DNA of 64,000 bases from Candidatus Latescibacterota bacterium (GCA_965116885.1 OZ220741.1:800001-864000), one strand, 5' to 3'; numbered from the stretch's first letter, positions 1 to 62,177 are shown. A program made the numbers and translations. Notes: generated by a model not told the origin, from the letters alone.

Positions 1-491
1 CGGCGTCCCAGCAGCGGTCCCTGACCATAGAAAATCTGAAGATTTTTCTCCTTGATCCCAAACAACTTCTGGGCATCCGAAGACAGTTCAATCGTCACAA
101 TGCCAGTGCCCCGCGCCCAGTGTTCTCGGTCTATCACCTTTGCATCTATCAAGTCGAGAGACCACAGGTAGTCATTGGTCGCAAGATAGGCTCCGGCACA
201 GATCCCGATAAAACCGCCTCCCTCTTTTACAAATTCCCGCACTGCTTCTCTCCCCTTTGACTCCAGGGCACGCCCTTGCTTTCCACCGCTACCACCGGGT
301 TGGATGAGAACATCCACCTCCGAGAGCTTACCCCCACGAATTGCCAGAGCGTCCATCCTGACGATCTCGAAATCCGGCTTTGCCTTTGCCTTGCCGAGCA
401 CTTCGAGAAGTTCCGCGCAACTTGGACCAGCGCCTTCGCCCTCATACACAGCGATCCGAATCCGGGTATTTTTTATTTTCTTTTCACTCAT
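1..491 (-). CDS. BPL-N / class I glutamine amidotransferase-like protein (runs off the window edge)
   Basis: Not in the ORF track. Manual translation from ATG at 491: MSEKKIKNTRIRIAVYEGEG...VLIQPGGSGGKQG...VREFVKEGGGFIGICAGAYLA. PGG and GICAG motifs are typical of BPL_N. Start overlaps the upstream PhyH stop. Confidence 0.75.
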   Translation of the reverse strand, partial: MSEKKIKNTRIRIAVYEGEGAGPSCAELLEVLGKAKAKPDFEIVRMDALAIRGGKLSEVDVLIQPGGSGGKQGRALESKGREAVREFVKEGGGFIGICAGAYLATNDYLWSLDLIDAKVIDREHWARGTGIVTIELSSDAQKLFGIKEKNLQIFYGQGPLLGR

Positions 492-1323: not shown

Positions 1324-1336
1324 ATCCCCTAAAAAA

Positions 1337-2173: not shown

Positions 2174-2301
2174 ATTTTTTCTCCTTATTTATCAACGCGA
2201 ATGCCCCCAGTGTGCCCAGAACCCAATCGAAACCACTGGGGGCAATTGTACTGCTGTCAAGATTCCCACGTTGCTTTAAATCGTACCATACAATTTCCCT
2301 G

Positions 2302-3396: not shown

Positions 3397-3399
3397 AAT

Positions 3400-4356
3400 T
3401 CAACGGCGTTCATTCAGCGACGTCCAACCGCGTCCCGGGGTGTGAACCTTCTTTCTATCCCACTCCCTCCGCAACGCGGCAAATTCCCCGGGATCTCGCA
3501 TCTCGCGCTCGGGATTTTGCGTATCCTGAATCACGAAATACGCCTCACCCGGATGGCACGCCATCGTCACTGGCTCGCGTTCTGGCGTATAATCTTCGGG
3601 CACCTCGCCGATATTGCTCGGCACGCCAAAATCCTGATATCGCAAATCCATACTCCACCGCACAATATCCGTCTTGTTTTCAAACGAAGCATGCGGCGTC
3701 AAATTCGTCAAAAACAAAACCGACCCCGCCGACATCTCCACAGGTATCGCACCCTCGGGAACATTTTCAGGTGCAATTTCCAAAAAGCCCGCGTGCCCAC
3801 CCGTATAATGTCGAATAATCCCCTTATCCTGCACCTTTGGAATCACCCACAAACACCCATTATCCAGCGTCGCATCCACCAGCGGTACCCAACACGTCAC
3901 CATCAAATACTCGTAACAATGCGCCATTGAATAACCCGCATCCTGATGCCACGGCACCTCCCCGCGCGAATAGCCCGGCACCTTGGGACGTATGCGATAA
4001 ATCGACGTACCGACGATATTGGGACCAATAATATCCTCAATACACGCAATCAACGGCCGATGCCGCAACGCCTTCAAAATCCCCGGCCCGTGAAACCTGC
4101 CCGACCAGATCGACATCAACACCTTGTGGGCGGCCTCCGGATTGTACCGATTAAGCCTCGTCAGCCGCGTCTCAAACGGCTCCTCAGCAAAATCGCGGTC
4201 CAGCTCGCCTTCGGCAATCAACTCATCGCACTTCTCCTGAACCGCGCCCGTCAACCCATCCTTCAAAAGTTGCAAATCGTCCGAAGAATAAATGGATTCT
4301 TTAACCACATAACCAAGCTCTTTGAATTGTCTAACTTCCTCTGCTGTAAGCCCCAT
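3400..4356 (-). CDS. PhyH-family dioxygenase
   Basis: Start reassigned to MGLTAEEVRQFKELGYVV; PWHQDAG, WVPLVDATLDNGCL, TPHAS, RWSMDLRY. Confidence 0.85.
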   Translation of the reverse strand: MGLTAEEVRQFKELGYVVKESIYSSDDLQLLKDGLTGAVQEKCDELIAEGELDRDFAEEPFETRLTRLNRYNPEAAHKVLMSIWSGRFHGPGILKALRHRPLIACIEDIIGPNIVGTSIYRIRPKVPGYSRGEVPWHQDAGYSMAHCYEYLMVTCWVPLVDATLDNGCLWVIPKVQDKGIIRHYTGGHAGFLEIAPENVPEGAIPVEMSAGSVLFLTNLTPHASFENKTDIVRWSMDLRYQDFGVPSNIGEVPEDYTPEREPVTMACHPGEAYFVIQDTQNPEREMRDPGEFAALRREWDRKKVHTPGRGWTSLNERR

Positions 4357-4373
4357 AGATATTTCCTTTCCGA

Positions 4374-5144
4374 TCACATCACCACTGGTTGCCGCCCGCC
4401 AATCGACGGCGGCTCCATAATCCGTCGCTGCTGATCTGTCACATTGGGATAATCGTCTGGATTGTAATAATTCTGTGCCCACGCCGAATGTCCCGGACTG
4501 AATTTATACAGCAATGAACGGCGCTCGTGCTCGCCTTCCCAGGGCATTGTTCCGTGCACCAGAGCCTCTGTAAAAATGATCATATCCCCAGCCTCTGCTT
4601 CGGGCTGATGTACATAGTGCGCTGGCCGCTCAAAATTGCGCACATCGTTGGGAATATTGACAAAATTGCTCTTATGCGACCCGGGAACACAGGCAAAGCC
4701 GCCATCCCCTTTGCGCGCGGGCGCAAGATTATACGTAAACACCGTCAACCCATTGCGCATCACGCCATCATGGTATTTGTACCAATGATCGCCCGGCACA
4801 CCCGCCTGCAGTGATGGCCCACCGTGCAATCGCCCGCGTCTCGCGCCCTTCTTCATAAAAATAGAATAATCGTGATCCACGCGAAACGTCGGCCCCAACA
4901 ACTCAATCATATACGGCAACGCATTGGGATGATCGAACAACGCCTGCGTCTCTGGACCCCACATTGAAACGCGACTCGTGCGGCGGTGCCCATCTTTTTC
5001 GTCGTCAGGATCAGCCCATACCTCATCGGCCAACTTATTCAGCGCATCCACCTCATCTGCACTCAACACATCTTTAACAACCAAAAACCCCTGCAAATCA
5101 AATCGAAACTTCTCTTCCGGTGTCATAATGGCCTCCGTTTCCAT
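4374..5144 (-). CDS. PhyH-family Fe(II)/2OG enzyme (HxG variant)
   Basis: FDLQGFLVV, GGFACVPGSHK, GDMIIFTEALVHG; metal motif RLHGGP. Confidence 0.85.
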   Translation of the reverse strand: METEAIMTPEEKFRFDLQGFLVVKDVLSADEVDALNKLADEVWADPDDEKDGHRRTSRVSMWGPETQALFDHPNALPYMIELLGPTFRVDHDYSIFMKKGARRGRLHGGPSLQAGVPGDHWYKYHDGVMRNGLTVFTYNLAPARKGDGGFACVPGSHKSNFVNIPNDVRNFERPAHYVHQPEAEAGDMIIFTEALVHGTMPWEGEHERRSLLYKFSPGHSAWAQNYYNPDDYPNVTDQQRRIMEPPSIGGRQPVVM

Positions 5145-7735: not shown

Positions 7736-8584
7736 ATGGCAATGCGACTCGACAATCCATATCTCTGGGCATATACCGCAGCCATTCTGTTGCACATTCT
7801 ACTCCTGCTCCTGGAAAACCCGCTGTCTGCGATCATTGTGCCGCAACCAGAAAAAATACCCGTGTCACCGCCCCTGACATTTGAATTTGTCGATGTGCCC
7901 CAAAATCGAGACGACGCCCCGCCTGAAGAAACCCCGTTGCTCGCAGAGCGCGATAACATCTCTCGCGATCAACAAATGGACCCCTTGCCCGAAAGCCACT
8001 TGCCATATTCCGATGGCATATCGCGGGCAAAGAACATAGCGACGCCAGCGCAGGGAAAGTCGCGCAGTGAGACACAGAGTACAGACCGCGCACCGGAAAC
8101 CACCGACAATCCCTTTAGCTTTGTAGAGGTATTGCAGAAAAATCCCGAAGAAGCGCGAAAAGAGCGAGAACGCGCGGTGCTGGGTGGGGAACTGCCTCAA
8201 GTGCGTATAGATATGGACAACAGCAAAACCCGCGCACTCGAACGCGGGGGATTGCAACTGAGCACGTATGCCTGGGACTATGCGCCCTATATGCAATATC
8301 TCAAGCGACATATTGACCGTCATATTTATCCACCCCGCGCATTCGAGTTGGGTATGATCGACGGCATGACCCAGGTAAAATTTAGAATCTGGCGCGATGG
8401 TCGGCTTGAAGGTCCCGAACTGATCGACTATAAGGGCCATGGCTTGTTGCGCGATACGAGCCTGAAGGCTGTTGAACTCTCGGCACCATTCAAGGCATTA
8501 CCGCCAGATTTCCCGGATGAGTACCTCGAAATTGTGGGGACTTTTGAGTATTTAATTTTTGGAAAAGGACAAAGGCGACAATAA
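7736..8584 (+). CDS. TonB/TolA-like energy transducer
   Basis: N-terminal TM with LLH, Pro-rich linker, C-terminal YPPRA...G..QVKFRI..DG...D..SLKAV..SAPF.ALP domain; adjacent to exbBD. Confidence 0.75.
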   Translation: MAMRLDNPYLWAYTAAILLHILLLLLENPLSAIIVPQPEKIPVSPPLTFEFVDVPQNRDDAPPEETPLLAERDNISRDQQMDPLPESHLPYSDGISRAKNIATPAQGKSRSETQSTDRAPETTDNPFSFVEVLQKNPEEARKERERAVLGGELPQVRIDMDNSKTRALERGGLQLSTYAWDYAPYMQYLKRHIDRHIYPPRAFELGMIDGMTQVKFRIWRDGRLEGPELIDYKGHGLLRDTSLKAVELSAPFKALPPDFPDEYLEIVGTFEYLIFGKGQRRQ

Positions 8585-46371: not shown

Positions 46372-47190
46372 ATGTCCTTCCAATTCACAGAAAAACACAT
46401 CGCCGATTACCATACCCTCGGCTACACCATTTTCCAGGACATCATACCCACATCCTTACTCACAGACCTGCGCAACGTCACCGACAACGCCAGAGAAATA
46501 GCGCGCAAAGTCACCGGCCCACAGGCACAGCGCCTCCAGCCCATCGCCAAATACGACCTCGACCAGCGCCCCTTCAAAAACTACGGTGAATTGCCAGAAC
46601 TCAACGACGCCATCCATCGGGTCCTCACCCCGCATCACTACCACGCCGACCTCGACCGCACCGGCATCCTCCTCGAACCCGCCGAATACCCCTGGTGTAC
46701 GGACTGGCACCGCGACTGGCGCGATCACATGCCCCGGGAAGTATTCGAATCCGAATTTCGCGAAGAATGGCAATGGCAATCCTTCCACATCGACTACCAG
46801 AACCAGATCAACTGCGCCCTGTACGAAGACCCCGCCACCTGGATCGTACCCGGCAGCCACTATCGCCAGCGCAACCTCCCCGGCGAAATCGCCGCCAAAA
46901 ACGCCTATGATCGCGACAAATTCCGCAACCAGAAACCCGTATCCAACGAACAACAAGAACGCGACTGCCTCGACTACACGCGCAACATGCCCGGTGCTAT
47001 TCAACTGCGCCTCAACGCGGGCGACTTCGCCCTCTACCGCTCCAGTGCCTGGCACCTTGGCAATTACGTCCCCTACCGCAAACGCGCCACCATCCACGAC
47101 TTCTGCGGCACACCTGAATATTCCCAACACATTAACGACCGCGTTGAAAGAAAAGAAACCGCCATCAAACGCCTTGCATCTGCGACATAA
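46372..47190 (+). CDS. PhyH-family dioxygenase
   Basis: WHRD, IVPGSH, LNAGD, WHLG. Confidence 0.8.
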   Translation: MSFQFTEKHIADYHTLGYTIFQDIIPTSLLTDLRNVTDNAREIARKVTGPQAQRLQPIAKYDLDQRPFKNYGELPELNDAIHRVLTPHHYHADLDRTGILLEPAEYPWCTDWHRDWRDHMPREVFESEFREEWQWQSFHIDYQNQINCALYEDPATWIVPGSHYRQRNLPGEIAAKNAYDRDKFRNQKPVSNEQQERDCLDYTRNMPGAIQLRLNAGDFALYRSSAWHLGNYVPYRKRATIHDFCGTPEYSQHINDRVERKETAIKRLASAT

Positions 47191-47343
47191 ACCGTCATGC
47201 ACATAACTATTGTCTCTGAATTTTTCTATTCGTAAATTGAGCACTACTGCGATAACAGTTCATCGGGACTTGTCCCGCCTTTGGGTGGCGGGGCAGGGTT
47301 CGTCTATTCGTTGATTCGTCTATTCGCATTAAGGAGCCACGCT

Positions 47344-48114
47344 ATGCAACTCACACCCGAACAAATCCGCGAATTTTACGACCGCGGCTACGTCAAAATA
47401 CCCGGAGCCATATCAAAAGCCATGGTCGATACCGCGCGTCAGGCCGTCAACCACTCCATCGGCACTCTGGGGCCAAATGGCGAAGACATGTCCAAACATC
47501 GCGCAGCGCAATTCTGTCGCGACTTGAATGGCGCCCCGGTTATCATGGACCTGTTCAACGCCAGCCCGGTCATCTCCCTCGCCGAATCCCTCATGGGTGA
47601 AGGCAACCTGCAAAAACCCATCAGAGGCGCGCAAGTCGCCCCGCGCTTTCCCACAGTAATCGGCGAAGTCCCACCCGAACCCCGCGGCCATCTCGACGGC
47701 ATGGGCACAGGCACAAACGGCATGCCAAAAGGCGTGTACCGCCGCGGATTCACGGCCTTCGCCGTCATCTATCTCGCCGACGTACCCGAACCCTACAGCG
47801 GCAACTTCACCGTCTGGCCAGGCTCTCATCGCTTCTTCGAAAACTACCTCAAACGCGAGGGCCTCGAAACACTCTCCAACGGCACCCCGCGCGTTGACCT
47901 GCCCGAAGGACCGGACATGGTCACCGGAAACGCCGGCGACCTCATCATCGCACACCATCAGATGATCCACACTGGTGGCCCCAATGCCTCGCCCAACATA
48001 CGCTACGCCGCCATCGCGCGCCTGCGCCACATCGACTGCGAGAAAAATGGCAACGAGGGCTTCCAGGACATCTGGCGCGAATTTCCCTGCGTGCGCGAAG
48101 CCATACCGGCGTAA
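47344..48114 (+). CDS. PhyH-family dioxygenase
   Basis: FYDRGYV, GHLDG, NFTVWPGSH, AGDLIIAHHQMIH. Confidence 0.8.
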   Translation: MQLTPEQIREFYDRGYVKIPGAISKAMVDTARQAVNHSIGTLGPNGEDMSKHRAAQFCRDLNGAPVIMDLFNASPVISLAESLMGEGNLQKPIRGAQVAPRFPTVIGEVPPEPRGHLDGMGTGTNGMPKGVYRRGFTAFAVIYLADVPEPYSGNFTVWPGSHRFFENYLKREGLETLSNGTPRVDLPEGPDMVTGNAGDLIIAHHQMIHTGGPNASPNIRYAAIARLRHIDCEKNGNEGFQDIWREFPCVREAIPA

Positions 48115-48247
48115 AGGGATCCGCAGAAAAAAACGCGAATAATTTGAGCGTTTTTCGCAGATGGACGCAGATAAAAGGCGAGAAGCGATGGAGAATAGAG
48201 TCTGGCGGGTTGAGGGACTGACAACTAACAACTAACAGAGGTTTACT

Positions 48248-49015
48248 ATGTCTATGACCATTACTGACGCGCAAAAACGCCAATTCGCCGAAGAAGGCTA
48301 CCTCAAAATCCCGGGGGCTGTCCCCAAAAACATGATCGAAACGTCACTTCGCGCCGTCAACCATTCCATCGGCAACGTCGGCATTGGCGGCGAAGACCCC
48401 TCCAGACACCGATCGGGATTCTTTTGCGCCGAACTCCTCGACGCACCCTTCATCCTCGACATGTACAACAAAACCCCGGTCATGCAAATCGCCGAATCAC
48501 TCATGGGCAAAGGCAATGTCCTCCCCGTTGAACGCGCCAAAACCTATCCGCGCTTTCCCCTCCCCCTCGGGCAAGAACCATCGCCACCGCGCGGACACAT
48601 CGACGGCATTGGCAGCGGCACCAACGGCACGGCCAAAGGCGATTACAAACGCTCATTCACCGCCTTCGCCGTCGTCTATCTCGTCGATGTCCCCGAACCC
48701 TACAGCGGCAACTTCACCGTCTGGCCCCAATCCCATCGCTTCTTTGCCTCCTACTTCACAGAACACGGCCACGAAGTACTCGCCAACGGCATGCCCCGGC
48801 CCAACCTGCCCAAAGACCCCATCATGATCACCGGCAACGCGGGCGACCTCATCATCGCGCATCATCAAGTCGTCCACGGAGCCTGTCTCAACGCATCGCC
48901 CAACGTGCGCCTCGCCACCATCACCCGCCTCAAACACAAAGACACCGACGAAATCGGCAAAGACGCGTACACAGACATCTGGCGCGAATGGTCAGGTGTC
49001 CGCGAGGTCCTGTAA
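48248..49015 (+). CDS. PhyH-family dioxygenase, close paralog of 47344-48114
   Basis: FAEEGYL, GHIDG, NFTVWPQSH, AGDLIIAHHQVVH. Confidence 0.8.
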   Translation: MSMTITDAQKRQFAEEGYLKIPGAVPKNMIETSLRAVNHSIGNVGIGGEDPSRHRSGFFCAELLDAPFILDMYNKTPVMQIAESLMGKGNVLPVERAKTYPRFPLPLGQEPSPPRGHIDGIGSGTNGTAKGDYKRSFTAFAVVYLVDVPEPYSGNFTVWPQSHRFFASYFTEHGHEVLANGMPRPNLPKDPIMITGNAGDLIIAHHQVVHGACLNASPNVRLATITRLKHKDTDEIGKDAYTDIWREWSGVREVL

Positions 49016-49021
49016 ATCAGG

Positions 49022-49804
49022 TTGACCATGACCATCACCGAAGCGCAAAAACAACAATACAAAGACGAAGGCTATTTCATTCTCGAATCCGTCATACCCG
49101 AGCACCACCTCGAACTCCTGCGCGATGAATGCCAGACCTTCATCGACACCATGCACGCGCGCATGGACGAGCAGGGTACAGACACCATCGGCATCAACCA
49201 CCGCAACAAACGCTACTTTGTCTCCAACTGCTTTCGCCAGCAACCCAAACTCCGCGCCTTCCTCTTCAGCGACCTCATGGCCGAAATATGCCGAGCCACC
49301 CTCGGCGAAAACGCATACCTCTTCTGGGAACAATACGTCGTCAAAGGCGCGGAAACCGGCATGAAATTCTCCTGGCATCAGGACTCGGGCTACGTCGGTT
49401 ATCCCGACCACAAACCGTACCTCACCTGCTGGTGCGCGCTCGACGACATGAGCGAAGAAAACGGCACCGTCCATCTCCTGCCCTATTCCCGCAGTGGCAT
49501 TCGCTCGTGGGTACACCACATCGTCGAAGAAGGCAGCAACGACAAAGTCGGCTACTTTGGCAAAGACCCCGGCCTCATTGCAGAAGTTCCCGCAGGCAGC
49601 ATTGTCGCCTTCTCCAGTATCGTCTTCCACAGCAGCAGCACCAACACCACCCCAAAACTGCGCCGCGCTTACCTGGGTCAATACTCCTGCGAACCCATCC
49701 TATCCCCCGACGGCAGCAAACTCTGGGGCAACGCCGAACCCTTCCTCCGCAATGGCAAGTCCACAGTCGGCGAACCCCCACCCGACCTGCCATCGAGATT
49801 GTAA
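49022..49804 (+). CDS. PhyH-family dioxygenase
   Basis: YKDEGYFI, WHQDSGY, WCALDD..EENG, VFHSS, RRAY. Confidence 0.85.
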   Translation: MTMTITEAQKQQYKDEGYFILESVIPEHHLELLRDECQTFIDTMHARMDEQGTDTIGINHRNKRYFVSNCFRQQPKLRAFLFSDLMAEICRATLGENAYLFWEQYVVKGAETGMKFSWHQDSGYVGYPDHKPYLTCWCALDDMSEENGTVHLLPYSRSGIRSWVHHIVEEGSNDKVGYFGKDPGLIAEVPAGSIVAFSSIVFHSSSTNTTPKLRRAYLGQYSCEPILSPDGSKLWGNAEPFLRNGKSTVGEPPPDLPSRL

Positions 49805-51198: not shown

Positions 51199-51806
51199 TT
51201 AGCAATATTGCGCGTGGGGATCCGGTATGCTTTGGAAGCGTTGGCAGTAATCCCATAAAACAAAATCAACCATCCGTTTTTCCATATCGTATTCATTGGC
51301 AAGATACGCAACAAGTTCATCAACTGTAGTTGAGCACGCTTCAGCACAACTTTCAAGCCAAACATCTGGCTTGGCCGTGTCTTGCAAGCCAATGTTCATT
51401 GCGAGGTGATACTTCGTCACATCTCCGATCCAAGGAAGCTCTTGTAGCACATCCATACCACCTCCGCTTACCCTCGATTTGAAACCGTCAAACCCTTCCT
51501 TGGCAATCATTTTGCAGCCTTTGAGGAAGTTATCCGCTTTAAGTTTATTCTGTATGGGAAGGGCGTCTCTCTTGATCGGCTTGAGATCGGCCAGGGCGTC
51601 GAGATCGAAATTTTTGAAGACAACAGTAATCGCCGGGAACTTGGCCTTAACAATCTTATTCCTGAAGCCGCTTGCAAAAACGACCCAACAGTATTTTTCT
51701 AAAAGTCAGTCGCGCTGAGTTTATCAAAGTCGAGAAATGTCCGTGCATTAACATCAACTTTAACGCGAGCAACTTCGAACATTCTTTTAGCTTTTTCCTT
51801 GTCCAT
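51199..51806 (-). pseudogene. Frameshifted HhH/DNA-glycosylase-like hypothetical gene
   Basis: ATG at 51806 (MDKEKAK...) stops at GAC TTT TAG. One extra T in the run at 51701-51704 gives DFLEKYCWVVFASGF... in frame with the 103-aa ORF (LPWIGDVTKYHLA...KPD). Confidence 0.6.
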
Positions 51807-51927: not shown

Positions 51928-53106
51928 TTATTTTTCTTTCCCTACCGTCAACGTCACATCGGGGATCGAAGTCCTTATTTCGTACGAGGCACGCAAGTTT
52001 ATCACTTGTCGCGTGCGGTCAATCTCTGCAGCCAGGAGTTCAGCGTCGGGCAGTGTAGTTCGATACTCGGCTGGCATTACATTGTTCGTCAACCCTCCGA
52101 GCGCGTACCGGGCAACGGCTTCGTTTTTCTCCGAGCAGAGAATTAGTCCTACGGGCGGGTTTTCATCCTCGTGCGTCCAGTGTTCCCGTGCATAGTTAAG
52201 ATAGAGGTTCATTTGTCCAGCGTCGGCGTGAGTGAATTTTCCGAGTTTCAAGTCAATGACCACCAGACACCGCAGACGACGATGATAAAACAGCAAATCT
52301 ACCCGATACCACTCGTCGCCAACACGCAGACGTTTTTGCCTGCCCATGAAGCAGAAATCCCCGCCCAATTCCATAAGAAAAGTCTCCAGGTGAGAGATTA
52401 ACGCTTCTTCCAGGTCGCTTTCAGAGTATTCGTCCTTGAGATCGAGAAATTCGAGAACGAATGGATCTTTGATTTCCTCTTCGGGGAGAACGCGGTCTTC
52501 AGATTGTGCCTTCTGGCCTTTGGTCAGCATGGCGGCTTTGTTCTTTGAGAGAGCCGTGCGCTCGTAGAACTGGGAATTGATCTGCCGGTTGAGCTGGCGA
52601 ACCGACCATCCTCCGCGCAGGGCCTCGGTTTCGTAGAACTCACGGGCGTTTATATTCTTCACAGAAAGCAATCGCACATAAGCGGACCACGAAAGAGGAA
52701 AGCGTGAGGCGATACTGGCCAAAGAAGATTCCGTTGATGTCGCTGGCAGCAGATTTTCGCTGGATTCAGATTCTCCAGACAGTGTCTGGAGAATTTGCTC
52801 AGGTGGATACGATTGGTAGAACAGACGCATCTGCCAGATATTCTGACGAGAAAACCCACGACCGAATCTTTCTGTGAGATCAACGGCCAGTCTTTCAACA
52901 AGTGCAGTTCCGTATTCGGCTCTCTCCTCACCTGACTGCTCAAATTCCACGACGTGCTGCCCGATCATCCAATACGCAGCCGTCATAACAGCGTTTACTG
53001 AACGAGCAGCAGTTCGCCTCGCCTCGTCGATAATACTGGATACATCACCAAAGATGGACTGGTACTGGACCTCAAGCTCGTCAGCTTTGACCATTGGCTT
53101 TTTCAT
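51928..53106 (-). CDS. DUF1016/YhcG-family PD-(D/E)xK nuclease-like protein
   Basis: AYWMIG, LSWSAY, WSVRQLNRQI, KDPFVLEFL, DLLFYHRRLRCLVVIDLK, GQMNLY. Confidence 0.9.
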   Translation of the reverse strand: MKKPMVKADELEVQYQSIFGDVSSIIDEARRTAARSVNAVMTAAYWMIGQHVVEFEQSGEERAEYGTALVERLAVDLTERFGRGFSRQNIWQMRLFYQSYPPEQILQTLSGESESSENLLPATSTESSLASIASRFPLSWSAYVRLLSVKNINAREFYETEALRGGWSVRQLNRQINSQFYERTALSKNKAAMLTKGQKAQSEDRVLPEEEIKDPFVLEFLDLKDEYSESDLEEALISHLETFLMELGGDFCFMGRQKRLRVGDEWYRVDLLFYHRRLRCLVVIDLKLGKFTHADAGQMNLYLNYAREHWTHEDENPPVGLILCSEKNEAVARYALGGLTNNVMPAEYRTTLPDAELLAAEIDRTRQVINLRASYEIRTSIPDVTLTVGKEK

Positions 53107-53342: not shown

Positions 53343-54038
53343 CTAATATGGCAGTTCAATACCTGTCTCTTTCAGCAACATTCGGCCCAGAGATGAAATA
53401 TCTATCCGAGCCTTGAACTCGCCTGCCTGCAAATCGAATGGAGGGTACTCTCCTCTTTTTACACCGTCGTATTTGCGTCGAAGGAGTCCTAGCCTGAGTA
53501 GGTTTTGCTTGCCGAGGTTATAGAGTTCCGCTCTATCTACTTCTTCCCGAGACGATCCTGAGGTAACCGGTGGTGGTTGGTCAATGTTGTCCCAAGCGTT
53601 GGAACCAAGATCCGGGTATGATTGACCGTAGGCATTGAGCAGAAGGAATTCGTCGTCATCGATTTCGCCGAACAGATCAAGTAGTCGTTTTCTTCTTATG
53701 AGGTCCACCTCATCTTCCCTCAACCCGCGAAACACGATCTCCGCAATTTTTGTAATGCGATCAGATGTTGTTGCCCGTGCCGCAAAGAATCCGCCGGATT
53801 CAATCAGATCAATTTTCTCGACGTCAGCCAAGATGTGTTCGACTTTCTCTTTTTCCAGCGTCTCAAGTCTCGCATTAAGCTGCCGAAGATACTCGACGAT
53901 GCGGTCCTGCCTCAGCCGAGGAATTGCTTCGGTAATCAGTTCGGCCAGCGGCCCACCAATGACAGGCACAAGGCTTGCCGCGGTCTTCGTGACGGATGCA
54001 ATGTTGTCACGCAAGTTTTTATCCAATTGATCAGACAT
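53343..54038 (-). CDS. Hypothetical protein, Abi-alpha/DUF4393-like
   Basis: N-terminal SLVPVIGGPLAEL helix; C-terminal winged-helix-like NLLRLGLL...ISSLGRMLL. Confidence 0.45.
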   Translation of the reverse strand: MSDQLDKNLRDNIASVTKTAASLVPVIGGPLAELITEAIPRLRQDRIVEYLRQLNARLETLEKEKVEHILADVEKIDLIESGGFFAARATTSDRITKIAEIVFRGLREDEVDLIRRKRLLDLFGEIDDDEFLLLNAYGQSYPDLGSNAWDNIDQPPPVTSGSSREEVDRAELYNLGKQNLLRLGLLRRKYDGVKRGEYPPFDLQAGEFKARIDISSLGRMLLKETGIELPY

Positions 54039-54215
54039 GCAAGGTCCCTCTTATTGGTCTAAATATCGACAAGAGTGCATTACTGTAATAGCCTACACTA
54101 TGGATGGTTTACAACTGGCTGTATCTCAAGCCTGTTCACCTTCTTGCGGACTCGACAAGGCAGGTATGCGTTATAGACATGGACGAAATTTTCCAAATTA
54201 GTTTCAACAAGCCAT

Positions 54216-54950
54216 TCACCGCTTAATCATTTTGTTGAGAATGCGCCGAATTTGACGTTCAAGCGGCTCAGGAATTTGTAGATTTTCCGACTTGATCATA
54301 GCAATACAAACATCAAGTACCGCAACAAAATCGTTCTGTAAGATACGTGCCGTGTGTAGCTTGTGGAGATCTCGCAGAGCTTGACCGTGGCATTTGCGGA
54401 CTTTTTTGCCGCTACCGCACGGACAGGGATGGTGCCCGCGATAACCATACTCAATAAGGAAGGCAATGACAGCCAATGCCGCTCGTTCGTCGGTCAATTC
54501 AAGAGTATCCATATAGTGCTGAACGATGCCTACTGCACCGTGTTCTGCCTCACCAAAGGGATGCGTACCATATTTCTTGTAATAGCAGTATCCGAAGAAG
54601 TACGGAATGAGGAGACGGTTTACAAATCCCAAGAGTGAGGGTTGTTGCCAGAAGATGCGGTGTTTTTCGATGGGGATTCCAAGGCATAACGTACCGTCCC
54701 CGTTCAGGTGATCATAATCGCTATCGATCTTCCCACCGGTTTCACGGACGTACGGAAGATTCTCTGGGTAAATATCGGGGATGGTGAGTTCGATTTCGAA
54801 GCACTCTACGATTGTGCTATGTCCATTAGCCGATGCCTCAAACGGCAATGGACCTGATAATATTGTCGCGTTTTCTGCTCTCGTGATTGCCGTCAGCCCA
54901 CGGTGTACACATTGCAATTCGGCAATCTCGGCAACAAGTTCTTCTTTCAT
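54216..54950 (-). CDS. Prokaryotic E2 (ubiquitin-conjugating-like) domain fused to SEC-C zinc motif; CBASS ancillary protein
   Basis: IELTIPDIYPENLPYV...HLNGDGTLCLG (E2-like), PFGE..HG, CPCGSGKKVRKCH (SEC-C); ATG abuts the CD-NTase stop. Confidence 0.7.
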   Translation of the reverse strand: MKEELVAEIAELQCVHRGLTAITRAENATILSGPLPFEASANGHSTIVECFEIELTIPDIYPENLPYVRETGGKIDSDYDHLNGDGTLCLGIPIEKHRIFWQQPSLLGFVNRLLIPYFFGYCYYKKYGTHPFGEAEHGAVGIVQHYMDTLELTDERAALAVIAFLIEYGYRGHHPCPCGSGKKVRKCHGQALRDLHKLHTARILQNDFVAVLDVCIAMIKSENLQIPEPLERQIRRILNKMIKR

Positions 54951-56156
54951 TTATGCTCTCCACGGCCTCGTCGACGTCGACTTTGAGATATGGATTCTCG
55001 GAACGCTACTTTCCGCAGCCACGCCAGATGCGATCAGGTCAAAATGTTTGGAGACAACCGCCGCACCGAGCGTCGCAGAAAGCCGTTCGCGCAGAATATT
55101 GAGGTGTGGCTCTTCCAAAATATCGAAAAGGGTTTCTTTTAACGCTGCAACCCAACGAAAAAAGGCTCTTGCACGCGCATGATTATTCTCATGCCAACGA
55201 TCAGCGAAATTCTCTTTGGAATTAACCGGATTACCAATATACCACCCACCGTCGGGCATGCGTTTAATGGGACTGTGGGGTGCCAAGCTTCTGTTCACAG
55301 TTCCGTTTTCAACGAGAACTGCATGTGCATGGAGCTGAGTGACAATACTGTGGAGTGCCGAGTAGATGTCAGGCTCGTCTTGGTAGAACTGCGCGGCGAG
55401 CGTAGTGATGATGATCGAGATAGGTGCGTATTTATTGTTCTGTTCATTGTCGAACATTATATCCCGATGTCGCTTCATGAGCTGAATCGAACGCTGGAGT
55501 GGCGTGCGGACGAGCGCGTCTGGAACATCGTCAATGCTCGCATAGATATGGGAACTCTGCGCCAGAATGGCCCGCTTCTGATCGGTTCGTGCGAATTCAA
55601 ATGCTGCTTGGTTCTGGCGGTCAAACCAAAGTCCGTAGCCTTTGGGATCGCTGGCCGACCAGATATAAACATTTTCTTTTTTGTTCGTAATGGCGATGGC
55701 TGTATCGAGAAGTTGTTGGGGGTCAGGAACCGACGGTAGGACGTCAAGGTGAAATCCAATATCATCCTGTTCGGCATACTCAAGTGTCCAGCACCGTTTG
55801 CCTTCTTCATCCAGCAACTTGCGGTACGTGCCGTGTTCCTTGAGGCGATTACCAACCATCAATTTCACAGATTGGGGAGTTGTCCAATGCTTTTCTATCG
55901 GCAATTCACATACAAGATCAATGTCGTAGCTAGCTTCGATACCGTCTCTTATGGGCCTGACGACGGTGCCAAGGCGAAAGGACCCTTGTGGATAAATGCT
56001 GGGTTCACCGGCGCAACCCGGATACTCACCACCCTCAAGATATTTGCCAACAGCCTGATAGCGATCAACCGCGTCTTGATATTTGCTCGGCGGAATGTCG
56101 ATAGTTTCCGCAACCTTCTCTAAAAATCTTGAATATCTATTTTTATCAACCATCAT
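54951..56156 (-). CDS. cGAS/DncV-like nucleotidyltransferase (CD-NTase)
   Basis: IYPQGSFRLGTVVRP...YDIDLV, FHLDVLP, PISIIITTLAA, NPVN..ENFADRW. Confidence 0.92.
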   Translation of the reverse strand: MMVDKNRYSRFLEKVAETIDIPPSKYQDAVDRYQAVGKYLEGGEYPGCAGEPSIYPQGSFRLGTVVRPIRDGIEASYDIDLVCELPIEKHWTTPQSVKLMVGNRLKEHGTYRKLLDEEGKRCWTLEYAEQDDIGFHLDVLPSVPDPQQLLDTAIAITNKKENVYIWSASDPKGYGLWFDRQNQAAFEFARTDQKRAILAQSSHIYASIDDVPDALVRTPLQRSIQLMKRHRDIMFDNEQNNKYAPISIIITTLAAQFYQDEPDIYSALHSIVTQLHAHAVLVENGTVNRSLAPHSPIKRMPDGGWYIGNPVNSKENFADRWHENNHARARAFFRWVAALKETLFDILEEPHLNILRERLSATLGAAVVSKHFDLIASGVAAESSVPRIHISKSTSTRPWRA

Positions 56157-56158
56157 TA

Positions 56159-57166
56159 TTACTCCTTGTTAAGTTGGTAAACCGGCGTGAATGCATCCGC
56201 CGGCTGATCAAAGAAAACGAGATCAAGAATGGGTTGTCGGTCACGAGCTTTCGTATGGCCGAGACCTTTCAATTTTTGGATAACCCGCGTGTCGTCCATC
56301 TTGTAAGTATCCTTGGAGACGGTGTGATCGATCCGATGTATGGCAGTTCGATCGTGTTCGTCCCCGGTGAGTAATTTGGCGATGCCCATCGCACCATGCG
56401 ACTGGCCATCCATGAACAACTTTACGATATTTGTACCAAGGGTCCCGATCCCGGCCCTCTCGGGAATGGTGTAGGTCTCTGCCAGACACCCCAAGCTCAG
56501 GATGTGAAGGGAGTCTCTTGGCCAGTCTAGCACGGTTGTGGCTTCAACCGCGGCAATGCCGATCGGATTGTTCGCCCAGACCCCGCCGTCAAGGAGCCCA
56601 ACATCGTGCTGTGTGATGTGGTGTTGGAAATAGGTTGGCGCAGCGGATGTGGCAAGGGCGGCATCGACGGCCGGGGATCGATAATCATTCTTCAGACGAG
56701 GATGATGGGCTGTCTTGTAGATATAAACGCACCGCGCAACCGGATTCCAGGCAGGAACCATAAGGCGGGTCGTTGCTTCGCCAATGCGCTTGTTGCCGAA
56801 AACGTCCTGAAGTGCACTACGTAGCGCATTAGAATCGTACTTCCGTCGGTAGAGCCATTGGATACCACGAAGTTTTCTATAGGCAAAACCTTGTAGCGCG
56901 TCATGATTCTGTCCGAAGACGTCAGGCCCGCATTTTTCGTAAAGGTCAAGGAGTTTTGTGGCGGGAAGGCCCATAGCCAGTCCGATGGCGAGAATTCCGC
57001 CGGTTGATGTACCGGCGATCAGGTCGAAATACGCACCAATTGGATATTTGAGATGTTGTTCCAGTGCCGCAAGAAAGGCCGCCGGAAAGGTGCCGAGAAT
57101 ACCCCCACCGTCAATAGAGAGAATGCGGCGTTTCGGTTCTTGTTGATATTGTTTTTCCTCTATCAT
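56159..57166 (-). CDS. capV: CBASS patatin-like phospholipase effector
   Basis: RILSIDGGGILG, GTSTG, SAAPTYF, DGGVWANNP; directly upstream of the CD-NTase; start reassigned to MIEEKQY. Confidence 0.88.
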   Translation of the reverse strand: MIEEKQYQQEPKRRILSIDGGGILGTFPAAFLAALEQHLKYPIGAYFDLIAGTSTGGILAIGLAMGLPATKLLDLYEKCGPDVFGQNHDALQGFAYRKLRGIQWLYRRKYDSNALRSALQDVFGNKRIGEATTRLMVPAWNPVARCVYIYKTAHHPRLKNDYRSPAVDAALATSAAPTYFQHHITQHDVGLLDGGVWANNPIGIAAVEATTVLDWPRDSLHILSLGCLAETYTIPERAGIGTLGTNIVKLFMDGQSHGAMGIAKLLTGDEHDRTAIHRIDHTVSKDTYKMDDTRVIQKLKGLGHTKARDRQPILDLVFFDQPADAFTPVYQLNKE

Positions 57167-57292
57167 TATTTTCCTCAACAGGGTAATGCCGGTTGTTATC
57201 AAGTAAGCAGATCGCCATGGAGTTCTTCTGCACGTCGTTAATGCAACTTCGAGCATATTACCGGCAGGAATTATATTATCAGACTCTTTGCA

Positions 57293-57350
57293 TGTTAAAT
57301 GTTTTGCAACACTAAACAATTAACATAAAAAAAACGGAGACAAATGTCAA
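57293..57350 (-). promoter_or_regulatory. Sigma-70 promoter of the CBASS operon with overlapping palindromic operator
   Basis: Minus strand TTGACA-17 nt-TATGTT; imperfect palindrome TGTTAAATGTT-ttgc-AACACTAAACA at 57293-57318. Confidence 0.65.
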
Positions 57351-57528
57351 GGTCAATCATGCGTCACTCCTGTCAGTCACCGCCGACAGCCTACGGGTCC
57401 TTATTCCACTAACTTGAGGACAAGATATACAACCAAGGGTGGGATGTCTAAGATACGGTATTATCACGGATTGATAAGGCATGTATAGTCGGTTAGTCGT
57501 AGCATACTTCTTACCCGTTTTTTAATCC

Positions 57529-58197
57529 TTAATTTACATATAGATTTAACCTATCTATCATATCCCCTGTGGTATCGCGCACCAGTTGTGTCTGCTTTAA
57601 CCGAATCATCATCGCCTGTATGGACACGCCAAAAGTTTTATTGAAATTTCTAGCCACATGGTTGAGGCAGTCTTCATATTGGCTAAACCGTGTGCCCCGC
57701 TTAAACGAATAGGCTTCTTTTCCGTAATATTCACGTACTGCTTGAGCCAGAAGATTACGAGGCATTAATATACACGCAGCAGTGAAATCAGCCTGTAATT
57801 CTTCTCTTTTTTTCTTTTGGGAATCTCGGCAGATAATATTTGCGCTCGTGGTACCAAAGAAATTTATTTGATTGGGATTGGGCATAAAAAACTCTCTGTG
57901 TAGCTCCCAGTGTGCTACTTCATGAGCCGCAGTAAAATTAAATCTTCCGACTTCTCTTTCAAGGGAACTGTCAATCACGATTCGACGTTCTAAGAAGTAA
58001 ATTCCACCTAAAATATCCGAACATTCCAGTTCATCTCTAAGATTGTCAATCTCAAGAGATAATTTTAGGTGGCTTTCGATAATGTCATCTATAGGGATTG
58101 GTAGGCCCAGTTGACCCCGATCTTGTTTGTATTCAAGCAAAAGTTTTTGGGCTACTGCCTCCATCTCATCGTATGTTAAGTAAGGGACGACAACCAC
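57529..58197 (-). CDS. ImmA/IrrE-family metallopeptidase (CapP-like)
   Basis: LPIPIDDI, RFNFTAAHEVAHW, ELQADFTAACILMP, FGVSIQAM.IRL. Confidence 0.85.
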   Translation of the reverse strand: MVVVPYLTYDEMEAVAQKLLLEYKQDRGQLGLPIPIDDIIESHLKLSLEIDNLRDELECSDILGGIYFLERRIVIDSSLEREVGRFNFTAAHEVAHWELHREFFMPNPNQINFFGTTSANIICRDSQKKKREELQADFTAACILMPRNLLAQAVREYYGKEAYSFKRGTRFSQYEDCLNHVARNFNKTFGVSIQAMMIRLKQTQLVRDTTGDMIDRLNLYVN

Positions 58198-58215
58198 AAG
58201 TACACTCCTAAACCA

Positions 58216-58575
58216 TTATTGTTTACGCCGATTTCTTGTATCGTCTATTAACTGATCCCATTCGGTGGACGAAAGATTCTGTTGAGCAATTGTTCGCATC
58301 AATTCTGGTAACTTTTCTTTGTAAATTTTATTTTTTTTATAGGTTTCTTCGATATCGGGGTGCACCCGATGATCCACAAGACTAAAAATTTCATCTTTGT
58401 CTTTATCATAAACTTTTGCGATCTGTAAAAGTTTATCAGCTTGGGGTGAATTCTCCTTGTTATTTTCAAGTCGGCTCAGATAGGTTGCTGAAATTCCAAT
58501 CCTTTTAGCGGACTCTCGCAAACCAAGACGCAAATCAAGCCGCCACTGTTTGATAGTTTCTCCAAATGTAGCCAT
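58216..58575 (-). CDS. XRE-family HTH repressor (CapH-like)
   Basis: FGETIKQWR...LRESAKRIGISATYLSRLEN...P. Confidence 0.88.
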   Translation of the reverse strand: MATFGETIKQWRLDLRLGLRESAKRIGISATYLSRLENNKENSPQADKLLQIAKVYDKDKDEIFSLVDHRVHPDIEETYKKNKIYKEKLPELMRTIAQQNLSSTEWDQLIDDTRNRRKQ

Positions 58576-58591
58576 GCTTTATCCTCCACAG

Positions 58592-58630
58592 CTTGCAGTG
58601 TAATGTAACACTAAACAAATATAAAGTCAA
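58592..58630 (-). promoter_or_regulatory. Sigma-70 promoter of the HTH/peptidase pair with the same operator half-site
   Basis: Minus strand TTGACT-17 nt-TACATT; TGTAACACTAAACAA at 58604-58618 versus TGCAACACTAAACAA at 57305-57319. Confidence 0.65.
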
Positions 58631-58987: not shown

Positions 58988-59836
58988 TTAAGAAATTAGA
59001 TGACCAGCCTCCTCCATCAACCGCAGCCAATCCTCATGACCGCTTGCCACCCGATCCGGGTCTATCTCACTTCTCGCAACAAAGCCCGGCACCTCCTCAC
59101 GCCCGGTTGGCAACCTGTAATCGCTATATCGAATATCCAGACTCCAGCGAATATGATCGGACGCATTGGGAAACGAGCGATGTATTGTCTTATGCTGAAT
59201 CAACGCGGCGCCCCCGGCCGGTAGCACAGACAAAACGCGATCCCCCCGCGGCAACTGATCCTCGGGAATCTCCTTCTCTGAATCCGCCGGATCGTGTGGA
59301 AGAATACCGTGCTTGTGACTCCCCGCCAAAATCTCCAGGCAGCCATTCTCCACATCCGTATCCACCAGCGGCACCCAGAAATTGACCATAAAAGTCTCCT
59401 CCACCTCCGGATCCAGAAACGCGATATCCTGATGCCACAACACCTCTTCCTCACCGGGCATCTTTGCGCGGATATTAAACTGCGGATGCACCAGAATTTC
59501 CGGCCCAATAATCGACTCCACCACATCCAGAATAGCCGGATGTGTCAGGAAAAAAAACAACCCCGCAGTCTTGTGAGCCTTGCCCAAAATCTCACCCACA
59601 AAACGCTTATCCGTCCCCAAAGCCTCGCACAAATACGCCAATCGGCACTCAAAAGGCGCGTCCTCAAAAAGACGCTCCAATTGACCCAGGGCATAAGCCT
59701 CTCTCGCCTTTTGTCCAATCACCGCATCAAACTCATCCACAAGCGGCTGATATGCCTCTGGGGGCAAACACTCGTCCAGCAACAAATACCCCTCATCCTT
59801 GTAAAAAGCAATCTGCTCACCAGTCAAACCACCCAT
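58988..59836 (-). CDS. PhyH-family dioxygenase
   Basis: YKDEGYL, WHQD, WVPLVD...NGCL...GSH, IHRS, RWSLDIRY. Confidence 0.85.
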   Translation of the reverse strand: MGGLTGEQIAFYKDEGYLLLDECLPPEAYQPLVDEFDAVIGQKAREAYALGQLERLFEDAPFECRLAYLCEALGTDKRFVGEILGKAHKTAGLFFFLTHPAILDVVESIIGPEILVHPQFNIRAKMPGEEEVLWHQDIAFLDPEVEETFMVNFWVPLVDTDVENGCLEILAGSHKHGILPHDPADSEKEIPEDQLPRGDRVLSVLPAGGAALIQHKTIHRSFPNASDHIRWSLDIRYSDYRLPTGREEVPGFVARSEIDPDRVASGHEDWLRLMEEAGHLIS

Positions 59837-59846
59837 GATTTATCTC

Positions 59847-60626
59847 CTATTTCTTCCATTCCTCACAGCCCCCAAACGGCATAGTCTCCCCCGGAACATA
59901 TCGTGGGCGTGCCGCATACACATTCGCAACATCCGGAGAGGCTTTGCCGCGCACGAGAATATTCTCGTGACCTTCTCTATTTACCCACGTCGTCGTCGGA
60001 ATATACCGCAACGTAAGCCCAACGCGCCACTGATCCGAAGTATTGGCATTCGAACCGTGGATAATATTCGGATTGTGGATCGAAACATCGCCCGCGTTGA
60101 GCTCCAGATCAACCGCATCGGAATCGTCAATCTGATCCGGATGAATACCCACGCCGAGCACGTACTTTTCCTGGTCCAGATCAATGAGATCGCGGCGCTT
60201 GAGCAAATGCTTATTATGCGTCCCCGGCAACACCCGCATACAGCCATTCTCAACCGTCGAAGGCGTCCCCGCAACCCACAAAGTCGTCACCTCCATCGGC
60301 TCGAGGGGCCAATAAGACCCGTCTTGGTGCCACTGCACAGCCTGACCATCGCCCGGGGGTTTGGCGATGTAATGTGCGGCAAACATCGCAACATCGGGCC
60401 CGAGAAATTGCTCGGCAATATCCACAAGGCGCTCATCGCCCACGAGCCGGTGCATAAAAGGATCGCGGGCGAGCAAATGATGATGCAAACGCTCTGGACG
60501 CACGCCGGGATTCCGCTCAATAAGCCAGTGGACGTGTTGCACCGTCTCCTCTGCGAGCGCCGCATCAATCGCCTTACGCGCGATAGCATAGCCATTTTGA
60601 TCGTATTCAAATCGCAAATTTTTCAT
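59847..60626 (-). CDS. PhyH-family dioxygenase
   Basis: KPPGDG..VQWHQDGSYW, NGCMRVLPGTH, IIHGS, RVGLTLRY. Confidence 0.88.
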   Translation of the reverse strand: MKNLRFEYDQNGYAIARKAIDAALAEETVQHVHWLIERNPGVRPERLHHHLLARDPFMHRLVGDERLVDIAEQFLGPDVAMFAAHYIAKPPGDGQAVQWHQDGSYWPLEPMEVTTLWVAGTPSTVENGCMRVLPGTHNKHLLKRRDLIDLDQEKYVLGVGIHPDQIDDSDAVDLELNAGDVSIHNPNIIHGSNANTSDQWRVGLTLRYIPTTTWVNREGHENILVRGKASPDVANVYAARPRYVPGETMPFGGCEEWKK

Positions 60627-60719: not shown

Positions 60720-62177
60720 TTATCCTGATCTGATCTCTCGCAACCTATCCGCCATCCGCTCGGCAACATCGGGATGGATTGACGCCACATTCTCAATCTG
60801 CCCAATATCGCCCGAAAGATTATAAAGTTGCGAAACTGGGGAATTACCAGTCTCAATATTCACATTCGTATTCACAGGCGGACCCTGATGCGGCGGAATA
60901 AACACCCAATCCCCCTGCCGCAAAACCGTCTTTGCCTGAACACCCTCCAGAACAATCTCCGCCCGACCCTCATCGCTTTGCCCCAGCAGAGCATCGAGCA
61001 CATCCACGCTATCGGGACCCGCATCTGCATCCAGCGAAACACCCGCAAGCGCGGCAAAAGACGCGAGAAAATCGACCTGACTAACCAGGGCATCAGACTC
61101 CCCGATTTCCACAGCACCGGGCCAGGAAACGATAAAAGGCACGCGGGTACCCCCGTCGTACATACTGTATTTTCCCCCGCGCAACGGACCTGCCGGCCGG
61201 TGATCGCCACACAGCTCAACCGCCTCGTCGTAATAACCATCATTCAGCACCGGACCGTTATCGCTGGAAAAAACCACAATCGTATCTTCTTTCAAACCAC
61301 ACCGATCGAGCGCATCGAGCATCTCGCCCACACACCAATCCATCTCGGCAATCGCATCGCCACGCGGACCCAATCCAGTACTCCCCACAAATCTGGGATG
61401 CGGCAACCGCGGAACATGGGGCTGGTGGAACGCGTAATACAGAAAAAACGGACCCTCCTTGTTCTTCTCGACAAATGAAACGGCCTTTTCCAAAAACACA
61501 TCGGCCATATCTTCATCCACCCAAAGCGCTGCCTCGCCCCCTCTCATATACCCGATCCGACTCACGCCATTGACAATACTCATATCGTGCCCGTGGTGGA
61601 ACATCATCTTCAGCAACTCGGGATTGTCTTTCCCGGTCGGCAAACCCGGAAACGGCTTATTCTTATCGTACTCCACCTCAATCGGATCGGACAGATCGAG
61701 ACCCACCACATCTCTGCCATCCAGATACACACACGGCACGCGATCATTGGTCGCGGCCATGATATAAGAATAGTCAAACCCAATATCCAGAGGCGTCAGC
61801 GGAAGCGGCTCATTCCAATTTTGATTCCCCTCGCCAATACCCAGATGCCACTTGCCAACAACACTCGTTTTATAACCCGCCTCCTTGAGCACGGAAGGCA
61901 AAGTAGAAGTACCCGGATCTATAATAAGCGGCGCATCACCGGGCAAAATATGCGCGCGTTCATTGCGCCAGGAATAAGACCCCGTAAGCAAGCTATAGCG
62001 CGAAGGCGTACACGTCGCCGCCGTGGCATATCCCTGATAAAATATTACACCCTCAGAAGCCAAACGGTCAATATTGGGCGTATCGAGTACCGTAGCACCG
62101 TAACAACCCACATCTCCAAAACCGAGATCATCTGCGTACATAACGATAATATTGGGGTGCTTTGCCGAATCTGCCAT
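60720..62177 (-). CDS. Arylsulfatase (Cys-type formylglycine sulfatase)
   Basis: PNIIVMYADDLG, CTPSRYSLLTG, GKWHLG, SSDNG. Confidence 0.92.
   Translation of the reverse strand: MADSAKHPNIIVMYADDLGFGDVGCYGATVLDTPNIDRLASEGVIFYQGYATAATCTPSRYSLLTGSYSWRNERAHILPGDAPLIIDPGTSTLPSVLKEAGYKTSVVGKWHLGIGEGNQNWNEPLPLTPLDIGFDYSYIMAATNDRVPCVYLDGRDVVGLDLSDPIEVEYDKNKPFPGLPTGKDNPELLKMMFHHGHDMSIVNGVSRIGYMRGGEAALWVDEDMADVFLEKAVSFVEKNKEGPFFLYYAFHQPHVPRLPHPRFVGSTGLGPRGDAIAEMDWCVGEMLDALDRCGLKEDTIVVFSSDNGPVLNDGYYDEAVELCGDHRPAGPLRGGKYSMYDGGTRVPFIVSWPGAVEIGESDALVSQVDFLASFAALAGVSLDADAGPDSVDVLDALLGQSDEGRAEIVLEGVQAKTVLRQGDWVFIPPHQGPPVNTNVNIETGNSPVSQLYNLSGDIGQIENVASIHPDVAERMADRLREIRSG

Follow-up and report, generated by a model that had tools for sequence, protein, structure and literature searches.

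A predicted E2-only CBASS locus with a zinc-knuckle E2-like regulator in a Candidatus Latescibacterota genome

Does an operon that pairs a nucleotidyltransferase with a lone E2-like protein define a new kind of antiphage defense, or does it belong to a class that is already known? We examined this question for a locus at positions 53343-58630 of a 64,000-nucleotide stretch of a Candidatus Latescibacterota bacterium genome (GCA_965116885.1 OZ220741.1:800001-864000), hereafter called the window. An initial annotation had described the locus as a new, minimal variant of CBASS (the antiphage signaling system based on cyclic oligonucleotides), composed of a patatin, a CD-NTase and a lone fusion of an E2-like core to a SEC-C zinc motif. 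By its sequence matches, the locus is instead an ordinary member of a catalogued CBASS class with a lone E2-like regulator. We consider it likely that the locus is a five-gene E2-only CBASS (also called type II short or E2-CBASS) in the order capH-capP-capV-cdnG-E2, whose way of working can be extrapolated from the SmCdnG-SmE2 pair of Serratia. The earlier interpretation stands with respect to the assignment to CBASS, the presence of an E2 without E1 or JAB, and the linkage of this E2 to a CD-NTase. It does not stand with respect to novelty, the term "minimal," the lone fusion, or the importance given to a terminal alanine.

The class assignment is carried by the 244-aa protein encoded at 54216-54950 on the minus strand, an E2-like regulator that has a zinc knuckle built into it. 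It matches the PADLOC E2 model PDLC00871 with an E value of 5.6e-82, with residues 2-240 aligned to model positions 4-238 of 241, and we found no classification-level difference between the protein and this PADLOC family. E2-only CBASS, reported in 616 genomes, make up 616 of approximately 5000 systems, according to the available portions of PMC12948482 and the preprint 10.1101/2022.05.25.493364. The initial annotation had named a match to an already described subtype as a reason to abandon its claim of novelty. Because the class has been described and a PADLOC model fits the 244-aa protein end to end, the claim of a new subtype falls by that test at the level of classification. For annotation purposes, the locus can carry a routine E2-only CBASS label with a CapV effector and CapH/CapP control. 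We take the PADLOC system label for this class to be cbass_type_IIs.

We scanned all 57 open reading frames (ORFs) of at least 90 aa in the window, and none matched a Pfam family for ThiF/E1 or JAB. This agrees with the description of the locus as a CBASS that has an E2-like protein and lacks both E1 and JAB. The locus resembles canonical type II CBASS in its E2-type regulator, predicted to act on the cyclase C terminus, and in CapV, a common effector in both. It differs from canonical systems, which encode Cap2 (E1-E2) and Cap3 (JAB), in that neither an E1 domain nor a JAB is present in the window, and in that the cyclase tail does not have a conserved Gly or Ala terminus. A housekeeping E1 of the ThiF/MoeB type, encoded elsewhere in the genome, could in principle charge the E2 in trans, and a distant E1 is conceivable given that 64 kb of the genome is visible. 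We regard this as very improbable: an E1 was found neither in the window nor in five genome loci that we scanned with PADLOC, the system travels between phyla as a compact cassette, and the Serratia E2 works without any cofactor in vitro (10.1101/2022.05.25.493364, in the part of the preprint available).

The initial annotation described three genes, and the span that it assigned to them contains six, including two regulators and an unrelated 231-aa ORF. A CapH/CapP-like pair lies upstream of the other CBASS genes within the same 53343-58630 span, so that "minimal" does not describe the system. Tight coupling of the patatin, CD-NTase and 244-aa genes was confirmed, with the first two joined by TAA-TA-ATG (a 2-nt gap) and the last two by TAA-ATG (a 0-nt gap). 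A Shine-Dalgarno-like run precedes the start of every one of the five genes, such as the GGAGGA before the ATG of capH. The CBASS cluster sits in a low-GC stretch, with a GC content of 0.39-0.52 at 51-59 kb compared to 0.53-0.58 in the flanks. We found no tRNA genes at the borders of this island and no flanking direct repeats marking its ends.

The effector gene, capV (56159-57166, minus strand), encodes a patatin-like phospholipase of 335 aa. The protein matches the Pfam family Patatin at 1.9e-28, the NCBIfam family CBASS_lipase at 3.1e-71 (240 bits, compared to a cut-off of 200) and the PADLOC phospholipase effector at 8.2e-99. This predicted CapV, encoded 2 nt upstream of the cyclase, would be the cyclic-nucleotide-activated effector of the operon. 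When delimited mechanically, the ORF extends to a TTG at 57319; the true start is probably the ATG at 57166, because orthologues start at the same Met and the longer reading from the TTG would run through promoter-like sites.

The CD-NTase gene (54951-56156, minus strand) encodes 401 aa and matches the PADLOC cyclase model PDLC00780 at 3.1e-118. Among structures in the PDB, it matches VcCdnG (9WOO, 3.8e-47), SmCdnG (8HSB/8YJY/9KKB, 5.5e-30) and 7LJN (3.4e-13), and because these are its closest relatives we refer to the cyclase as clade-G-like. The GS motif (G58/S59) and the acidic residues D78 and D80 (DxD) and D138 are intact here and invariant in 30 of 30 sequences; judged by these motifs, the CD-NTase is catalytically intact. 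VcCdnG and EcCdnG make 3'2'-cGAMP, as stated in the available parts of PMC12804361 and PMC12991175.

We searched for homologues of the E2-like regulator in two ways. A word-indexed search returned 340 homologues (E ≤ 0.001); the 120 best ones listed are 239-280 aa long. A full HMMER search with a profile built from 30 sequences returned, at 50% identity, 2279 clusters for E ≤ 0.001, of which 1572 remain at 1e-10 and 343 at 1e-30. In the 30-sequence alignment, H81, C89, H137, H173, H174, C176, C178, C187 and H188 are invariant, and all 13 rows that we inspected keep an H...LC[LM] motif. The motifs quoted in the initial annotation were all found: HLNGDGTLC, which includes H81 (54708-54710, minus strand) and C89 (54684-54686); CPCGSGKKVRKCH, which spans residues 176-188 (54387-54425); and the end of the CD-NTase, VPRIHISKSTSTRPWRA. 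The H-x-N...G-T-L-C-L motif resembles the HPN...C signature of eukaryotic E2s. The invariance of the two residues makes a catalytic role for H81 and C89 plausible, as do the retained H...LC[LM] motif and the fold matches described below.

The initial annotation had named a lack of recurrent linkage to CD-NTases as an outcome that would refute it. Our census of gene neighborhoods covered five genome loci, obtained with the single-sequence E2 query, and two plasmid loci, and in all seven the gene directly upstream of the E2 gene encodes a cyclase. The genome loci come from a second Latescibacterota genome (95% identity), Nitrospinaceae, Steroidobacteraceae and two gammaproteobacterial metagenome-assembled genomes. 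A patatin gene precedes the cyclase in four of the five; the remaining one, L005, has a 2TM-SAVED effector downstream instead. With PADLOC at 1e-5, capP was detected in four of the five genome loci and capH in three. A tblastn search of plasmids returned 12 records distributed over Bacillota, Bacteroidota, Campylobacterota and Vibrio. In the two plasmid loci inspected, a gene annotated as "nucleotidyltransferase" stands directly before the E2, the cyclase tails end in TKPWRN and VKPWCRS, and the knuckle is kept. We also found natural fusions of a cyclase to a zinc-knuckle E2, P0265 (651 aa) and P0328 (616 aa), in which RPW or QPW is kept at the junction. In P0390 (680 aa), the region after a zinc-knuckle E2 contains a SAVED domain (PF18145). 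For all three fusions, read-through during assembly is possible.

The C-terminal tail of the CD-NTase (residues 375-401; 54954-55034, minus strand) contains the conserved motifs P-R-I-H-I-S and R-P-W, the latter at 54960-54968 with two variable residues after it; in the 30-sequence alignment, neither P398 nor W399 varies. We counted tail features in the best 120 of 6822 cyclase homologues at E ≤ 1e-10. The pattern P-[RK]-I-H-I-[ST]-x4-[KR]-P-W, followed by 2-13 further residues, is present in 120 of 120. PW is followed by two residues in 58 of the tails and by three in 56. Directly after the Trp, Arg predominates (95 tails), with Gly in 10, Lys in 6, Met in 5 and some other residue in 4. Only 22 of the 120 tails have a Gly at any position after PW. 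Ala closes 36 of the tails and Gly 12. It follows that the terminal Ala singled out by the initial annotation is not the key feature of the tail, given its presence in only 36 of 120 homologues and the retention of [KR]PW in all 120. An AlphaFold2 (AF2) model of the cyclase monomer, of low confidence (pLDDT 67.2), places helices at residues 352-363 and 365-374 and leaves residues 378-401 disordered (pLDDT 42-46).

The zinc knuckle of the E2-like regulator had been described as part of a lone E2-SEC-C fusion. SEC-C was detected by Pfam at 19.4 bits, just below the gathering score of 20.4, and the ligand pattern is present and invariant among homologues. A C-x-C...C-[HC] pattern occurs in all 120 of the best-listed homologues from the word-indexed search. 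At the level of clusters, 138 of the best 150 (of at least 2279) carry the 13-residue C-x-C-x9-C-H form, and in another 7 the last Cys of the knuckle is separated from the His by one to three residues, for a total of 145 of 150. Of the remaining clusters, 2 diverge from approximately residue 165 as if frameshifted, and 3 are truncated. All seven matching PADLOC E2-type models run across residues 176-188. Because 120 of 120 close homologues and 145 of 150 cluster representatives carry it, the knuckle is a trait of the whole family rather than a fusion specific to this locus. A search of the ESM Atlas with residues 150-244 returned SEC-C clusters only, with scores of 0.78-0.80, below the useful level. 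The initial annotation had also stated that no E2+SEC-C CBASS protein has been characterized; our full-text literature search is consistent with this. The same search found no published biochemistry of the PDLC00871 E2 family or of KPW cyclase tails.

What might the knuckle do? The motif C-x-C-x-S-G-x8-C-H is shared with the C-terminal metal-binding domain of SecA and with YchJ (PF02810; 1TM6, 1OZB, 1SX0, 9L6B), and zinc-domain peptides of SecA/YchJ in the PDB match the knuckle at 3.8e-4 to 7.5e-3. The SecA zinc domain contacts SecB and the ribosome. In line with the partner or phage sensing suggested by the initial annotation, the SEC-C knuckle could work as a sensor or adaptor: it would bind a partner from the phage or the host, such as SecB or the ribosome, and trigger the system. 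The strict conservation of the knuckle, which implies that it matters for function, is in favor of this idea, as is the match itself. However, the motif is internal here, at residues 176-188 of 244 with helices after it, and it lies within a confidently modeled helical region (pLDDT 82-95) rather than on a free terminal peptide as in SecA. Moreover, where the matched SecA peptides have the Tyr of KKYK, the knuckle has Val184, which is nearly invariant. The sensing route published for clade-G cyclases is also a different one, a protease-cleaved activation loop (PMC12991175, as far as the available part of that source describes it). A sensing role is possible, and we consider it quite unlikely. 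Most likely, the SEC-C-type knuckle serves as a structural zinc site in the C-terminal extension of the E2.

We modeled the E2-like regulator with AF2 (pLDDT 71.3, pTM 0.50) and obtained a helix, four strands and then helices, which is the order of elements in the UBC fold. Confidence is high (pLDDT 82-95) at the knuckle and in the C-terminal helices, and it is low at residues 81-137, with pLDDT <50 in the active-site region. A Foldseek search with the model matched TSG101 UEV domains at a probability of 1.00 with a TM score of approximately 0.5, and the E2 profile matched UFC1 and UBE2W weakly, with E values of approximately 1. CorA channels, which occupied the top Foldseek rows at probabilities of 0.2-0.5, were rejected as long-helix artifacts. 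With UEV domains as the best fold matches, the protein might be viewed as a non-catalytic, UEV-like scaffold. We assign this view a barely appreciable probability: UEV domains do not have the catalytic Cys, whereas Cys89 and His81 are invariant in this family, and the low confidence of the model exactly at the active site may bias the match toward the UEV fold.

The closest studied system is that of Serratia. In the portions of PMC12948482 and preprint 10.1101/2022.05.25.493364 available, the Serratia E2 is an 18-kDa protein with cysteine protease activity that relies on C101 and H87. Needing neither E1 nor cofactors, it cuts the cyclase so that the residue following G406 is lost, then passes through a thioester to an isopeptide bond with its own K159, and this chemistry controls the activity of the cyclase. 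The same portions report that a Gly is highly conserved in the cyclase tails of E2-CBASS. The part of the SmCdnG C terminus that binds the E2 consists of a helix and a three-stranded sheet (PMC12948482).

The present locus resembles the Serratia system in several ways. In both, a clade-G cyclase gene is immediately followed by a lone E2-like gene without E1 or JAB, the cyclase has a C-terminal extension, and the E2 has a His/Cys pair (H87/C101, which are essential, in Serratia; H81/C89 here). The cyclases are homologous (5.5e-30), and the relative L005 shares the 2TM-SAVED effector type. There are also differences. The cyclase alignment ends at residue 334 of SmCdnG, and therefore the tails are unrelated; there is a conserved Gly in one and [KR]PW in the other. 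SmE2 ends in a C-terminal loop, whereas the E2 here continues for approximately 75 more residues that form helices, the zinc knuckle and three more helices. Finally, the effector is CapV here and 2TM-SAVED in Serratia, and CapH/CapP are added here.

Several results weigh against reading this locus as a counterpart of the Serratia system. Neither the E2 sequence nor the profile retrieved SmE2 at E values up to 10, and the fold search did not retrieve it either, so the Serratia analogy rests on the cyclases and on operon logic, not on demonstrable homology between the E2s. The 244-aa protein matched no Pfam E2 family, and its model had no Foldseek match at E ≤ 0.001; because of this, and because the UEV matches reach a TM score of only approximately 0.5, a UBC fold is likely and short of proven. 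We looked for a Lys column that is at least 90% conserved among the E2 sequences and found none, so that nothing obvious corresponds to K159, the acceptor in SmE2. The conserved attachment-site Gly of E2-CBASS cyclase tails is absent from the tails here, and no E2-binding motif of the SmCdnG type (a helix plus three-stranded sheet) was seen in the low-confidence AF2 monomer of the cyclase. In addition, capH-capP point in the same direction as the CBASS genes here, whereas the pair is divergent in L002-L005.

By analogy to Serratia, E1-independent chemistry on the cyclase tail is a sensible expectation. The E2 would dock on its cognate cyclase at the flexible C-terminal tail, and Cys89 and His81 would attack the peptide bond at or beside [KR]PW, without ATP or E1. 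This attack would trim the short variable end of the tail (the last 2-3 residues), and the E2 would probably keep the cyclase as a covalent adduct, restraining or priming it. Infection would then release or activate the cyclase to make a cGAMP-type signal, and the nucleotide would activate CapV, leading to membrane destruction and abortive infection. The knuckle would fasten the helical extension of approximately 75 residues onto the UBC core. That extension would replace the C-terminal loop of SmE2, and it may form part of the site that binds the tail. We also predicted the complex of the cyclase and E2; three runs scored 0.52, 0.48 and 0.48, compared to 0.36 for one control, and we used this result neither for nor against an interaction.

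The same tail data can be read more simply, with the E2 acting only as a processing protease or docking chaperone that trims after [KR]PW(R) and frees the cyclase, leaving no lasting conjugate and no poly-cyclase chains. A tail without a conserved Gly and an E2 without a conserved acceptor Lys fit this explanation, the length after PW, which ranges from 2 to 13 residues, is what would be expected of a leaving peptide, and SmE2 has protease activity, as reported in the available part of 10.1101/2022.05.25.493364. On the other hand, the protein retains the E2-like H-x-N...LCL signature and a UBC-like topology. The natural cyclase-E2 fusions are compatible with protease-only and conjugation models alike. 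We judge the protease-only explanation unlikely, and we favor processing of the tail followed by retention of the cyclase on the E2.

Taken further, the zinc-knuckle E2s and [KR]PW-tailed cyclases could constitute a mechanistically separate, and possibly larger, branch of E2-CBASS, in which the E2 processes a Gly-less Trp tail and the knuckle extension replaces the lysine-bearing loop. We put this forward tentatively, as an idea somewhat doubtful at present. If it is true, an attack on a peptide bond at a bulky residue, possibly through a thioester, would be unusual for ubiquitin-like chemistry, and the lock-and-release logic of the knuckle branch would depart from the published model. Serratia, the sole E2-CBASS studied at the bench, appears to be unrepresentative of a very large group (at least 2279 clusters at 50% identity and E ≤ 0.001) in which the E2 has a zinc knuckle and the cyclase tail ends in [KR]PW without a conserved Gly. 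If the "conserved glycine" rule fails for this group, then the model in which a lone E2 mimics a ubiquitin cascade would need a second version. The zinc knuckle and the Gly-less tail are thus the uncharacterized part of the locus, worth a modest bench follow-up.

The two upstream genes encode a predicted regulatory pair. The capH-like gene (58216-58575, minus strand) encodes a helix-turn-helix (HTH) repressor of 119 aa that matches Pfam HTH_3 at 9.4e-10, PADLOC HTH_VI at 2.4e-10 and, modestly, PADLOC capH at 3.1e-8. The CapP-like gene (57529-58197, minus strand) encodes an M78/IrrE metallopeptidase of 222 aa that matches Pfam Peptidase_M78 at 1.3e-7 and PADLOC capP at 5.7e-18 and has HEVAH at residue 92. 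The locus thus has the two components of a CapH/CapP pair, a putative HTH repressor and an HExxH metallopeptidase, beside a defense operon. A CapH/CapP transcriptional module is described in the preprint 10.1101/2022.04.27.489752, as far as its available part goes. That module is likewise an HTH and M78 peptidase pair beside CBASS, and the pair recurs in L002-L005. It differs in that the PADLOC capH match is modest here, and the HTH protein of the relative L005 has no such match at 1e-5.

Promoter-like sites are present upstream of both gene groups on the minus strand. Those at capV (57270-57350) are TTAACA-17-TATAAT at 57298..57270, the best of them with 11 of 12 consensus positions, and TTGACA-17-TATGTT at 57350..57322. 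The site at capH-capP (58599-58630) is TTGACT-17-TACATT at 58630..58602. A 23-nt direct repeat is shared between the two regions (57300-57322 and 58599-58621, 83% identical), with the minus-strand core TTGTTTAGTGTTRCA, and both copies fall within promoter-like sites. At capV, a palindrome with 13-nt arms (57287-57304/57314-57331) includes the local copy of this element. The 23-nt element is a candidate CapH operator at both promoters. The evidence for this role is only suggestive, because we estimate that approximately two exact 12-mers would be expected by chance in 8.2 kb. CapH would probably repress both promoters through the shared element, of 15-23 nt, and CapP would lift the repression after DNA damage.

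Other defense genes adjoin some of the related loci. In both L001 (140-4140) and L005 (8995-14661), a type III restriction enzyme (approximately 1e-153) and a PDC-S32 protein lie beside the CBASS, and the flank of L005 also carries a type III methyltransferase. In L002, an SbcB-like exonuclease (PADLOC RTasSbcB, 1.4e-106) is encoded next to capP and is reminiscent of the "putative exonuclease" in the Serratia operon.

The sixth gene in the span, the 231-aa ORF (53343-54038, minus strand), begins 177 nt downstream of the E2 gene and matched no Pfam, NCBIfam or PADLOC family. We considered it as a sixth CBASS gene and rejected it, given that it belongs to no family and is absent from L002-L007. 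In the closest relative, L001, only a counterpart of its first 43 residues is present, at 91% identity and right behind the E2 gene (7913-8041). In the ESM Atlas, it matches unnamed 239-aa clusters at 0.97-0.98, and in one of these clusters 25% of the members carry Abi_alpha; we treat this as a lead only.

Farther downstream on the minus strand, the low-GC stretch that houses the CBASS also contains an intact gene for a YhcG/DUF1016 PDDEXK nuclease (51928-53106), which matches Pfam at 3.2e-58 and 8.9e-45 and the PADLOC candidate defense family PDC-S02 at 8.2e-140. A 5'-truncated OGG-like gene follows (51202-51705, minus strand), whose stop-to-stop frame matches PADLOC OGG at 7.6e-29 over model positions 46-206 of 215. 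OGG is a CBASS accessory of the 8-oxoguanine glycosylase type. The gene here lacks a start codon before a Met at 51510 as well as the part corresponding to the first approximately 45 model positions, and it appears to be left over from another defense cassette.

ORFs at 46372-49015, which had no Pfam match at 1e-5, resemble PhyH-type (phytanoyl-CoA dioxygenase) paralogues by eye. Six PhyH-type paralogues are located at 484-4482, 49022-49804 and 58988-60626, with a sulfatase gene nearby at 60720-62177, and the defense islet is inserted between two of these paralogues.

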